Shown: one piece after another, positions 1,832-4,006 of the stretch
Layout: each line of letters starts with the position of its first letter
Numbering within the stretch: the first letter of the stretch is position 1
Program-made: the position numbers and the translations under genes
From: Gammaproteobacteria bacterium
GTDB lineage: Bacteria > Pseudomonadota > Gammaproteobacteria > SZUA-21
DNA: 54,015 nucleotides
Assembly (NCBI GenBank): GCA_003233345.1
Contig: QILK01000008.1
Span: 1 to 54,015, forward strand
Direction of reading: 5' to 3'
Notes under the pieces: model-generated
Databases searched by the model: none
What the model saw: the letters and a program-made list of their open reading frames with translations, nothing else
Told to the model about the DNA's origin: nothing

Positions 1832-1865
1832 ATTCAGCTTAAATTCAGGTTAATGTCACTATAGT
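1832..1865 (+). promoter_or_regulatory. Response-regulator (PhoP-like) direct-repeat box plus -10 element
   Basis: ATTCAG-cttaa-ATTCAG (1832-1848), 11 nt, TATAGT (1860-1865); same architecture at 2621 and 3463. Confidence 0.75.
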
Positions 1866-1980
1866 ACACACTATATCGAGGCATTCGCAAGGCAGAGCAT
1901 CGCATTGTAAAGACAGCCATAATAATTGTATAGCTGGATCTGAATCAAAATACCAGACTGGTAATACAAGGAGAAGTCAG

Positions 1981-2472
1981 ATGAACACGTTAAAATATTT
2001 TCCATTACTATTAATATTGTTTGCAACTACTGCATTCAGTTATGATAGACAGACGGAGTCGAGAGCTAAGCAACTAGAGACAAGTTCGTGGCATATGGTT
2101 GATATGATTGCGCGCCGTGTCGGAGACGCTAGATTAACAAGCGATGTTCGCCGATTAGCCCGTGCCGCCAGTGTGCTAAAATTTTCGGCTCGCCGTGGTG
2201 ATTTTAAAAATGTTATTGACAGAGATTTTCATCAGGTCGAGTCGCTGTACAAACATGTGTTCGGTTCATTCACAAATGCGCATTATGCACACCATAGACT
2301 GCACGAGCAATCTGATTTTAGAGCCTTACAGGCAAAGTTTTTTGCATTAAGGGCCTCTATTCAAGGTGTCCCTTACCGTCCACAGCACCAACTACCGCAG
2401 GGTCATACTCATGGCAATCAGCATGGCCAGAGACACGGTAGAGGTCATGGGCATGCAGTAGCACCGCACTAG
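1981..2472 (+). CDS. Secreted His/Arg-rich helical protein of unknown function (paralog A) with His/Gly/Gln-rich tail
   Basis: AGGAG RBS; Sec signal ending AFS|YDR; gapless similarity to 3602..4006; tail QGHTHGNQHGQRHGRGHGH. Confidence 0.85.
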   Translation: MNTLKYFPLLLILFATTAFSYDRQTESRAKQLETSSWHMVDMIARRVGDARLTSDVRRLARAASVLKFSARRGDFKNVIDRDFHQVESLYKHVFGSFTNAHYAHHRLHEQSDFRALQAKFFALRASIQGVPYRPQHQLPQGHTHGNQHGQRHGRGHGHAVAPH

Positions 2473-2620
2473 ATTTTTTAAGTTTGTTGTACACCGATGG
2501 TTGGGCGCACTCTCCTAAACGTTCCAAGCCTAGCCTAGCTTGCTCAATCATCGGTTTTTTAATTCCCGCCATATAGATCTATCGTTTTCATTCAAACAGC
2601 TGTTATTAACTTTATACCCG

Positions 2621-2654
2621 GTTCAGGCGATGTTCAGTATCAACTATCTATAGT
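2621..2654 (+). promoter_or_regulatory. PhoP-like direct-repeat box plus -10 element
   Basis: GTTCAG-gcgat-GTTCAG (2621-2637), 11 nt, TATAGT (2649-2654). Confidence 0.75.
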
Positions 2655-2660
2655 GCGCTC

Positions 2661-3110
2661 ATGCTACAACAAACACATCAATCTGTTTTTACCTGCCTTA
2701 AGGCCTTATCCCTTATGTGTTTATTGTTTGTGTCATTCGCGCATGGCGAAAAATCGTCGATTAATATTGATAACTTATTTACTACGCTAGAAATGAACGT
2801 CAGCAAACTCGCCAAAATATCTAGCCAAGCGGACGCCAATGTATTTGCGTCGAGTAAACGTCTACTGCTAAAACTTCGCCATTATCGGGGAGCGATTCTA
2901 ATCAGTAACCGAGAACAGCTCTATCGTAACGAATATTTAAGTTTGTTACTTAGCTACTCTGATTTGCAAAGAAGCGCTAAAAATGCCCATAATTTGTTAG
3001 AAATAAATAGGGTTCGCATTATAATGGAGCAGCTTAGGCGTAAAATTATAGAACTTGAGCAGTTCAGAAACAGCTATCATGGCCCTGAAAATAACATCAG
3101 TACTCTATAG
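2661..3110 (+). CDS. Secreted helical protein, divergent paralog B of the flanking genes
   Basis: Signal-like N-terminus ending AHG; SKRLLLKLRHYRGAI aligns with AKRFAREVRHFKRSI of paralog C and KNAH with TNAH of paralog A. Confidence 0.7.
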   Translation: MLQQTHQSVFTCLKALSLMCLLFVSFAHGEKSSINIDNLFTTLEMNVSKLAKISSQADANVFASSKRLLLKLRHYRGAILISNREQLYRNEYLSLLLSYSDLQRSAKNAHNLLEINRVRIIMEQLRRKIIELEQFRNSYHGPENNISTL

Positions 3111-3360
3111 TCGCCGCGTGAAAAAAGGGCATTGCTATGTCAAGGTTTTATCCAATCTGGCCTGATGGTGGAATTATACATGTGTTTTAAATGAGAATAT
3201 CCTTTTTGCTTGCTTGAACATCATCAAAAAATTAATTAAAATAGCACTTGTTTAGAATAACTTAATAACCATAAACTAATTTACGTTTATTAATGTGTTG
3301 GCAACGCCACTGTTTTTGCACAACTAAGTTATGTAATGTTGCCAATATTTTGTTATTATT

Positions 3361-3377
3361 GTTCAGCGGGGGTTCAG
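3361..3377 (+). promoter_or_regulatory. Additional upstream PhoP-like box
   Basis: GTTCAG-cgggg-GTTCAG. Confidence 0.6.
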
Positions 3378-3462
3378 TTAATATTTCATCTATTTAGCAA
3401 GTAATATTCACCAGAAATAATTTGTTTTTATAGGTAAAAATCAAGCAACTATCGTGAATCTC

Positions 3463-3496
3463 GTTCAGCCTTAATTCAGTTAGGGTTGCGTATAGT
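3463..3496 (+). promoter_or_regulatory. PhoP-like direct-repeat box plus -10 element
   Basis: GTTCAG-cctta-ATTCAG (3463-3479), 11 nt, TATAGT (3491-3496). Confidence 0.75.
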
Positions 3497-3519
3497 TATA
3501 CATAATAAATTGCCGGACT

Positions 3520-3590
3520 GTTCAGGGACAAAACTAAAAGTGTTCAGCACTAGTTCAGCGTTTAGGAGCTCTTAATTCATAAACTTTCAG
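3520..3590 (+). promoter_or_regulatory. Helically phased array of further TTCAG half-sites in the predicted 5' leader
   Basis: GTTCAG at 3520, 3542 and 3553, ATTCAT at 3575, TTTCAG at 3585 (offsets 22, 11, 22, 10). Confidence 0.55.
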
Positions 3591-3601
3591 GAGATTTAAA
3601 A

Positions 3602-4006
3602 ATGAGATTGGTAAAAACACTTCCATTATTGTTACTGATGGTAGCCGGATCAGCATTTTCTTATGACCGTGGTCTTTCGTTTAAAGCGAATTCATTGGAA
3701 CGTGCGGCGTACCGCCTTGCACATACGATTCGTCACCGTAGTGGTTACAGCCATGCACATGGTGATGCGAAAAGATTTGCTCGTGAAGTTCGTCATTTCA
3801 AACGTTCAATTCATAATGGTGCAAATTACCACCACTTGAATAGAGATTTTCGGCATATTCGTACTAAGTATAATCGTTTAATGCATAGTGTAAATCGTTC
3901 ACATCGTTTACACCATTCTCGCCATGTTAGCGCCGATATTCGCTCAATGCGACATAAATTCCGCCGTTTGCATGATGAGATACACCATCGGCTAGGCCAT
4001 CATTAA
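3602..4006 (+). CDS. Secreted, strongly His/Arg-rich helical protein (paralog C)
   Basis: AGGAG RBS; signal ending AFS|YDR; about 20 His and 21 Arg in the 114-aa mature chain (hand count). Confidence 0.88.
   Translation: MRLVKTLPLLLLMVAGSAFSYDRGLSFKANSLERAAYRLAHTIRHRSGYSHAHGDAKRFAREVRHFKRSIHNGANYHHLNRDFRHIRTKYNRLMHSVNRSHRLHHSRHVSADIRSMRHKFRRLHDEIHHRLGHH

Follow-up and report, generated by a model that had tools for sequence, protein, structure and literature searches.

Three genes behind a shared PhoP-like promoter and a predicted PhoP-type regulon of exported, mostly histidine-rich proteins in a gammaproteobacterium

The three genes described here, P1, P2 and P3, follow one another on the forward strand of contig QILK01000008.1 (assembly GCA_003233345.1) from a gammaproteobacterium of the SZUA-21 lineage, and each of them is preceded by the same promoter pattern, a direct repeat placed at a fixed distance from a -10 hexamer. 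The window, i.e., the whole stretch of DNA that was analysed, covers positions 1 to 54,015 of this contig and represents contig C3 of a draft genome, G000, with a size of 3.89 Mb, 274 contigs and a G+C content of 41.9%. P1 (1981-2472) encodes a secreted and basic protein of 163 amino acids (aa) with an isoelectric point (pI) of 10.7, 9% His and a His/Gly-rich C-terminal tail, P2 (2661-3110) a helical orphan of 149 aa (pI 9.7, 3% His) and P3 (3602-4006) a secreted, very basic and His/Arg-rich protein of 134 aa (pI 11.8, 15% His). The Sec-type signals were read off the N-terminal sequences and the family alignment, in which a conserved hydrophobic stretch ends in AFS or AFA.

An earlier note on this DNA had reported three copies of RTTCAG-N5-RTTCAG, each followed after 11 nucleotides (nt) by TATAGT, at positions 1832, 2621 and 3463, and all three were verified by direct reading of positions 1500-4700 and by comparison with shuffled sequence. 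The full pattern RTTCAG-N5-RTTCAG-N11-TATAGT matched three times in the window, once ahead of each of the three genes, as compared to a mean of 0.00 in 100 dinucleotide-preserving shuffles. All elements are on the forward strand. Box 1 (1832-1848) is the direct repeat ATTCAG-cttaa-ATTCAG with a period of 11 bp, and its -10 hexamer is located at 1860-1865, with no -35-like hexamer; box 2 (2621-2637) reads GTTCAG-gcgat-GTTCAG and is followed by TATAGT at 2649-2654, and box 3 (3463-3479) reads GTTCAG-cctta-ATTCAG and is followed by TATAGT at 3491-3496. The box alone was found five times in the window, as compared to 0.02 times expected from dinucleotide-preserving shuffles. The two additional copies, which were absent from the list in the earlier note, are both of the form GTTCAG-N5-GTTCAG and both located ahead of P3, one at 3361-3377, 102 nt upstream of box 3, and the other at 3542-3558, between the -10 hexamer and the start codon of P3. 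The position of the latter would suit repression or a second promoter, and it is relevant here that PMC3156716 interprets a box placed between -10 element and start codon as repressive.

Relative to a presumed transcription start about 7 nt past the -10 hexamer, the box spans approximately positions -40 to -24. This is the position that is occupied by activators of the OmpR/PhoB family, which thereby replace the -35 element. A scan for the sigma-70 consensus yielded no -35/-10 pair at any of the three promoters, which fits a dependence on an activator, though it is not in itself evidence for one. Hairpins that resemble terminators were identified downstream of P1 (2493-2561, forward strand, with a U tract, -23.1 kcal/mol, z -2.18) and of P3 (4021-4057, forward strand, followed by AUUUUAAU, -21.8 kcal/mol, z -2.20), while P2 has no clear terminator downstream (z +1.03). 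The U-tailed hairpins thus indicate that at least P1 and P3 are separate transcription units. Ribosome-binding sites of the AGGAG type precede P1 and P3. The ATG codon of P2 at position 2661 is located only 6 nt past the TATAGT hexamer, and the mRNA of this gene is likely to be leaderless, provided that ATG 2661 is the start. The database gene call for P2 instead uses an ATG 18 codons downstream, yielding a protein of 131 aa that lacks the charged start of the signal peptide.

The earlier note had envisaged a regulon that extends beyond these three genes, and the genome-wide scan agrees with this: the box is over-represented and stands ahead of unrelated genes for envelope proteins. In total, 16 exact boxes were identified in G000, as compared to about 2.3 expected by chance from 4194 half-sites. 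Nine of these have TANNNT exactly 11 nt downstream, and 10 have it at a distance of 10-12 nt. In a control consisting of the reversed but uncomplemented genome sequence, three boxes were found, none of which had TANNNT at 10-12 nt. With one mismatch in the box and a -10 hexamer, the numbers were 12 in the genome and three in the reversed control. When 16 regulon promoters were aligned on the box, information was confined to the two half-sites and the -10 hexamer, and the flanks are thus dissimilar, as had been claimed for the DNA around the three promoters. In several promoters, including those on contigs C12 and C4, three or four half-sites follow one another in phase at 11 bp.

These patterns also bear on whether the shared promoter is simply a by-product of tandem duplication, by which the promoter would have been copied along with the gene with no common regulator. 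The presence of the paralogs P1 and P3 side by side is in line with such an origin, but the sequences around the boxes show little similarity to each other, at least ten other contigs have this box at the same spacing ahead of unrelated genes, and the box is also kept in two other genomes, which makes this explanation extremely improbable. That we are dealing with an OmpR-family regulon as such is very likely.

The regulon comprises about twenty box promoters, and most of the products are small, basic, secreted and His-rich. Seven small secreted proteins were identified, most of which are His-rich: 87 aa on C12, 105 aa on C62 (37% Gly, 16% His), 89 aa on C72, 84 aa on C89, 88 aa on each of C119 and C163, and 101 aa on C214 (6% His). 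The small regulon members contain 17-27% His in the mature part and have short repeats, and no Pfam family was identified in the six that were scanned (C12, C62, C72, C89, C119 and C163). Other box promoters precede a lipoprotein-like open reading frame (ORF) of 58 aa with an HGGGGHH motif (C46), a 543-aa lipoprotein with two phospholipase D (PLD) domains and a secreted 466-aa protein without family (both C56), and a gene for a cytochrome c followed by a gene for a TerB-DnaJ protein (C54). A protein of 84 aa encoded at C4:5615-5966 (L030:1616-1967), downstream of four phased half-sites, has neither a signal peptide nor a Pfam family. Among the regulon products it alone is clearly cytoplasmic, and its orthologs in the related genomes G001 and G002 are also preceded by boxes (L036 and L033).

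We compared these results to two related genomes, G001 from the same genus and G002 from the same taxonomic family. Exact boxes were found seven times in G001 and 17 times in G002, while the control pattern was found in neither. Whether homologs of the window genes keep the box had been raised as a check on the regulon, and six of the seven homolog loci in G001 and G002 do, with the box located upstream and on the strand of the gene; some of these have four or five phased half-sites. Over all three genomes, 8 of the 10 genes of the family to which P1 and P3 belong are preceded by a box. Recurrent targets in the relatives include the orthologs of the 84-aa protein of C4 in both genomes, an ortholog of the secreted 466-aa protein, and a secreted Gly/His/Tyr-rich protein of 86 aa.

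A search for the OmpR-type DNA-binding domain (Trans_reg_C) in G000 gave 12 matches, 11 of which were above the cut-off, and all 12 are located on other contigs, consistent with the previous statement that the window contains no cognate two-component system. Contig C128 encodes one of the regulators, within an operon located downstream of the box ATTCAG-tttgg-GTTCAG and, after 11 nt, the hexamer TAAACT. The operon encodes, in this order, a secreted Gly-zipper protein of 184 aa (PF13441/PF05433), a secreted His-rich protein of 168 aa with no Pfam family (C128:1635-2141; L023), a response regulator of 226 aa and a histidine kinase that is cut by the contig end. The 168-aa protein, a possible accessory of the sensor, contains a His/Arg run and a C-terminal domain, the latter of which is conserved in G001. 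The same four-gene operon is present in G001, where the regulator is 81% identical and where the upstream region contains ATTCAG-tctgg-GTTCAT-N11-TACTAT, with one mismatch in the box. Judging from the box and -10 hexamer upstream of the operon and of its ortholog in G001, the C128 operon is predicted to be autoregulated, and the autoregulated response regulator that had been predicted can thus be assigned to this PhoP-like protein.

Among the NCBIfam families, PhoP (NF008078) was the top match of the C128 regulator with 215.5 bits, which does not reach the equivalog cut-off of 336. In none of the nine other full-length OmpR-type regulators of G000 was PhoP among the listed NCBIfam matches; their top matches were MtrA, CopR/CzcR-type regulators (two), PhoB (two), CreB, YycF, OmpR and a sortase-system regulator. 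The G001 kinase, of which 499 aa are available before the locus ends, matched PhoQ (NF008077) with 140.2 bits, as compared to 52.3 bits for the next family, with the match confined to residues 298-498, the cytoplasmic portion of the protein. In a Pfam scan at E <= 0.1, only weak matches to HAMP and HisKA were obtained for the kinase. We conclude from these sequence comparisons that PhoPQ is the probable origin of the regulator, the transmitter and the DNA code of this system, and not of its sensor.

The system resembles the PhoP-PhoQ system of Pseudomonas aeruginosa in several ways. In the oprH-phoP-phoQ operon, the envelope gene oprH comes first and is followed by the genes for the regulator and the kinase, and in the C128 operon genes for envelope proteins likewise precede those for the regulator and the kinase. 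Both systems have envelope targets and an autoregulated operon, in our case as predicted from sequence, and PhoP and PhoQ are the best named matches for the regulator and for the transmitter of the kinase. In both, a direct-repeat box replaces the -35 element at a fixed distance from the -10 hexamer, here 11 nt and in a few cases 10-12 nt. The box sequence and the 11-bp period are also shared: the PhoP box GTTCAG-N5-GTTCAG, which the earlier note had given for oprH of P. aeruginosa, agrees with the consensus GTTCAGNNNNNRTTCAG published for this species in PMC3156716. The differences are that the kinase studied here has a longer periplasmic region with no match to PhoQ_Sensor, that both proteins score under the equivalog cut-offs, and that most of the regulon consists of small, secreted and His-rich proteins together with an unnamed four-helix family. 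Also, the scans for exact and one-mismatch boxes turned up no genes for Mg2+ transporters or lipid A modification, neither of which was searched for specifically.

It is likely, on the basis of these sequence features, that the PhoP-like regulator of C128 binds the box and activates transcription when phosphorylated. We also considered that the box might be bound by a different regulator of the OmpR family, such as one of the CopR/CzcR-like proteins encoded on C36 and C7, in which case C128 would merely be a target and the regulon would respond strictly to metal stress. Two of the regulators have the heavy-metal subfamily TIGR01387 on top (238.4 and 216.6 bits), the targets are His-rich, G002 is rich in boxes without a detected ortholog of the C128 system, and a box with one mismatch is located near the two-component genes of C7, ahead of a gene for a 583-aa protein. 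However, the C7 site lacks a suitably spaced -10 hexamer and no box was found upstream of the genes for the CopR/CzcR-like regulators themselves, whereas the PhoP-like operon is the sole regulator operon with a correctly placed box and -10 hexamer, kept in G001, and the box equals the PhoP consensus published for P. aeruginosa (PMC3156716). A different regulator is thus quite unlikely.

Turning to the proteins, the three products had been suggested to be mutually homologous, which holds for P1 and P3 and could not be confirmed for P2. P1 and P3 share 32% identity over 128 aa (E 5e-16) and are, by this measure, clear paralogs. For P2, BLASTP yielded no alignment with P1 and an E value of 0.017 with P3, and when the family profile was compared to P2 with hhalign, the alignment was colinear over 120 columns with a probability of only 5%. 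P2 did not match the family profile A2 at E <= 1e-5 in its own genome, and searches of 5.8 billion clustered proteins and of both related genomes, G001 and G002, retrieved no relatives of P2. In a word-based homolog search, P1 retrieved itself and one relative with 87% identity, and P2 retrieved only itself. A single-sequence model of P2 has four helices with lengths similar to those of the family, with a predicted local distance difference test (pLDDT) score of 66.7, a low confidence that cannot establish homology. P2 may be a fast-diverged paralog of P1 and P3. Likewise, the description of the three proteins as cationic and His-rich applies to P1 and P3, while P2 is basic with only 3% His.

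The statement that the proteins could not be assigned to a named family was upheld, with no family match in Pfam, NCBIfam or the PDB for any of the three. The sole row in the Pfam and NCBIfam searches of P1-P3 was CATASP with an E value of 0.16 for P1, which was taken as a chance match. LTXXQ and Metal_resist were absent from the Pfam matches of P1-P3 at E <= 10 and of ten distant family members at E <= 1; in the latter, the only match was DUF3011 on C-terminal extensions of two proteins, with the bundle itself unmatched. A profile search of PDB sequences retrieved nothing below an E value of 0.007, with rows that represent designed coiled coils, and a Foldseek search against the PDB gave no match at E <= 0.001. 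The VIA-align wide search retrieved generic helical bundles, with a single-chain ROP on top at a Z score of 13.2, which is within the expectation for helical bundles. In the ESM Atlas, only unnamed clusters of hypothetical proteins were retrieved, with values of up to 0.86 for P3 and 0.83 for P2.

When 1.84 billion representative proteins were searched exhaustively with the family profile, 535 members were identified at E <= 0.001, of which 163 at E <= 1e-10; both P1 and P3 match the family profile A2 at E <= 1e-37. The AlphaFold2 model of P3, which was built from an alignment of 11 sequences (A1), has a mean pLDDT of 85.1 and a predicted template modelling (TM) score of 0.75. It consists of the signal-peptide helix followed by helices at residues 23-47, 50-71, 76-99 and 107-131, plus a short helix at 101-105, and the P1/P3 family is accordingly predicted to form a four-helix bundle.

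In an alignment of 35 sequences, four histidines are at least 90% conserved, H51, H101, H104 and H105 in the numbering of P3, and these together with the profile match were used as the core signature of the family. All four are present in P3 and three are present in P1. An alignment of 176 domains shows a conserved hydrophobic a/d core, and His and Asp residues are located one residue ahead of core positions (H38, H51, D55, H65, H78, D82, H92, H108, D112), while H30 follows a core position by one residue and H101, H104 and H105 are located in the short helix that joins helices 3 and 4. From the up-down topology of the model, we infer that H51/D55, H101/H104/H105 and H108/D112 are placed at the same end of the bundle. 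The residues kept in P3 are H51, D55, H65, H78, D82, H101, H104, H105, H108 and D112, and those kept in P1 are H38, D55, D82, H92, H101, H104, H105, H108 and D112. Many members also have a Cys ahead of helix 1 and another in the loop between helices 2 and 3, suggestive of a disulfide. Tandem-repeat forms of the bundle domain contain from 2 to 10 matched stretches, the latter in a protein of 3829 aa, and the domain was also found fused to the Cys-rich DUF3011. Proteins P0032, P0015, P0025, P0029 and P0045 represent these variations.

P3-like genes were detected in 3 of 41 genomes, namely G000, G001 and G002. With a broader profile, 300 genomes sampled across the class were surveyed, with one genome unscored and at most 12 candidates scored per genome, and P3-like genes were again found in three, only in that taxonomic family. 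A search of the collection of genome contigs with P3 as the query gave no related loci; with alignment A3, four loci were retrieved, one of which has the same ORFs as a locus of G001 (L016). The three unrelated loci contain no TTCA-N7-TTCA repeat within 300 nt upstream, and the link between the family and the box is thus seen only in the taxonomic family of the window. No loci were retrieved in two scans of metagenome contigs (with alignment A5 and with protein P0010). Among the read sets listed as sharing sequence words with this DNA, none is from RNA, and the DNA sets, some of which are labelled as hydrothermal vent or sediment metagenomes, contain a share of no more than 0.21 of the words, from which we deduce neither a habitat nor expression. 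A gene for a cytochrome c is located directly upstream of P1 (884-1354 in the window) and another is located upstream of the P3-like gene in G001 (L014:892-1332). In a metagenome-assembled genome of the Halobacteriovoraceae (L059), a family member has two additional helical ORFs next to it and CxxCH proteins around it. A link of the family to heme proteins or redox reactions is possible, and given the nearby cytochrome c genes its members may even bind heme.

We propose the following mechanism for the genes in the window. P1, P2 and P3 would be separate transcription units, each with an activator-dependent promoter in which the direct repeat RTTCAG-N5-RTTCAG stands in for the -35 element 11 nt upstream of TATAGT. 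We infer a pairing of the repeat with a dimer of an OmpR/PhoB-family response regulator, transcription start sites shortly past the -10 hexamers, and metal binding by the products. The regulator would be the PhoP-like protein of C128, which would control its own operon through the same box, and upon stimulation of the kinase the phosphorylated regulator would recruit RNA polymerase to about twenty promoters. The products would almost all be exported and would include the P1/P3 family, the small His-rich proteins, lipoproteins and a cytochrome c. P1 and P3 would be periplasmic four-helix bundles with a group of histidines (H51, H101, H104, H105 and H108) at one end that would bind divalent metal ions, such that the regulon would supply the envelope with a His-rich buffering or chaperoning capacity.

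Periplasmic binding of divalent metal ions is suggested because a group of histidines is conserved and because numerous small, secreted and His-rich proteins would be co-regulated. Taken alone, this role is an evenly balanced candidate, as judged from the conservation of residues. The proteins in the same regulon could have another role, in which the basic proteins bind anionic lipopolysaccharide or phospholipid and stabilise the outer membrane during a shortage of divalent cations or at low pH, or in which the His side chains buffer the periplasmic pH. Stabilisation of the outer membrane by such charge binding has been proposed for OprH, and the arrangement of an envelope gene ahead of the regulator and kinase genes in the C128 operon recalls that of oprH-phoP-phoQ. 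The pI values of P1, P3 and the small proteins of C12 (87 aa) and C89 (84 aa), which range from 10.7 to 11.9, are also in agreement with such a role, as is the phospholipase D-type lipoprotein within the regulon. OprH is encoded by a PhoP-controlled gene that is induced by Mg limitation, according to PMC3156716. However, distant members of the family are often acidic and retain the same histidines, and the conserved property is thus the His pattern and not the positive charge, and a near-invariant group of histidines at fixed positions argues for a specific site. We therefore regard a charge-based role as somewhat unlikely.

We also compared the proteins to other metal-binding and envelope proteins. 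The copper storage proteins Csp1 and Csp3, the first of which is exported, are single-domain four-helix bundles of a similar size with many metal-ligand-type residues along the helices, and their structures match the model with Z scores of 10.3-11.5 and a TM score of about 0.6, although such Z scores are usual for any helical bundle and the sequences are unrelated (7-10% identity). The core of the Csp proteins is lined by Cys, whereas P1 and P3 contain 0% Cys and the conserved ligand-type residues of their family are His and Asp that flank the core and do not fill it. CpxP, Spy and ZraP, the last of which binds zinc, are likewise small, basic and helical periplasmic proteins under the control of an envelope two-component system. 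P1-P3 differ from these in that no match to LTXXQ or Metal_resist was obtained and in that P3 is modelled as a closed four-helix bundle, unlike the hairpin cradle of these proteins. In their His content and short repeats, the small regulon members resemble the His-rich Ni/Zn-binding proteins of the Hpn type in Helicobacter pylori. The latter are cytoplasmic, whereas the proteins identified here have N-terminal export signals and would be under the control of a two-component system.

Taken as a whole, a PhoP-type regulon of exported proteins with metal-binding P1 and P3 is the explanation that we consider probable, and a number of observations weigh against it. The C128 regulator and the G001 kinase fall short of the PhoP and PhoQ equivalog cut-offs (215.5 versus 336 bits and 140.2 versus 497 bits), and the next matches of the regulator, to RppA (199.2 bits), CtrA (197.6 bits) and the heavy-metal subfamily (195.7 bits), follow closely. 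The periplasmic region of the kinase, of about 270 aa, matches no Pfam family, including PhoQ_Sensor, at E <= 0.1, and the canonical PhoPQ signals can thus not be assumed; low divalent cations, which the earlier note had put forward as the inducer, are therefore doubtful. No orthologs of the regulator, the kinase or the Gly-zipper gene were detected in G002, an assembly that is 92% complete and has 17 boxes, and the best regulator match in this genome is a PhoB beside a PhoR-like kinase. The two family genes without a box, on G000 contig C264 and G001 contig C576, are each other's closest relatives. H51 is missing in P1, and several histidines that are conserved elsewhere in the family are missing in P1 and in P3; also, the matches to the fold are generic four-helix bundles. 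In a reciprocal and crude scan, 37 signal-peptide-like ORFs with at least 12% His were found, many of which are probably spurious, and for nine of these, the 300 nt upstream contain a box with up to one mismatch. Of the plausible ORFs for secreted His-rich proteins in G000, about half have no box, and since several convincing examples are among these, the regulon covers only a part of the His-rich secretome. Small ORFs of this kind are located at C12:19662, C30:8277, C81:8211, C193:2620 and elsewhere, and contain repeats such as HGYNR.

A more far-reaching interpretation, which we put forward tentatively and consider rather doubtful, is that P1 and P3 represent a new and widespread class of exported four-helix metalloproteins, in which layers of conserved His and Asp where the helices meet would bind several divalent metal ions, as a His counterpart of the Cys-lined copper stores of the Csp proteins. 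In this lineage, these would be deployed together with the small His-rich proteins by a PhoPQ-derived system with a new sensor, as an inducible periplasmic buffer against surges of metal or acid.

To our knowledge, PhoP-type regulons are textbook systems that are known almost entirely from work on enterobacteria and pseudomonads. The regulatory logic described here is already known, while three aspects, namely the sensor domain of the kinase, the make-up of the regulon and the family of P1 and P3, appear to be undescribed, as judged from literature abstracts, in which neither a description of the family nor a His-rich PhoP regulon was found. In this organism, the same DNA code would drive a quite different output, consisting of secreted His-rich proteins without family match, under a kinase in which a different sensor domain appears to have been acquired. 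The P1/P3 family, with 535 representative clusters, near-invariant histidines and no relative in Pfam or the PDB, is a candidate for a new periplasmic metal-binding fold. The regulon would also provide a clean, sequence-defined example of how the output of a two-component system has been rewired in uncultured bacteria.

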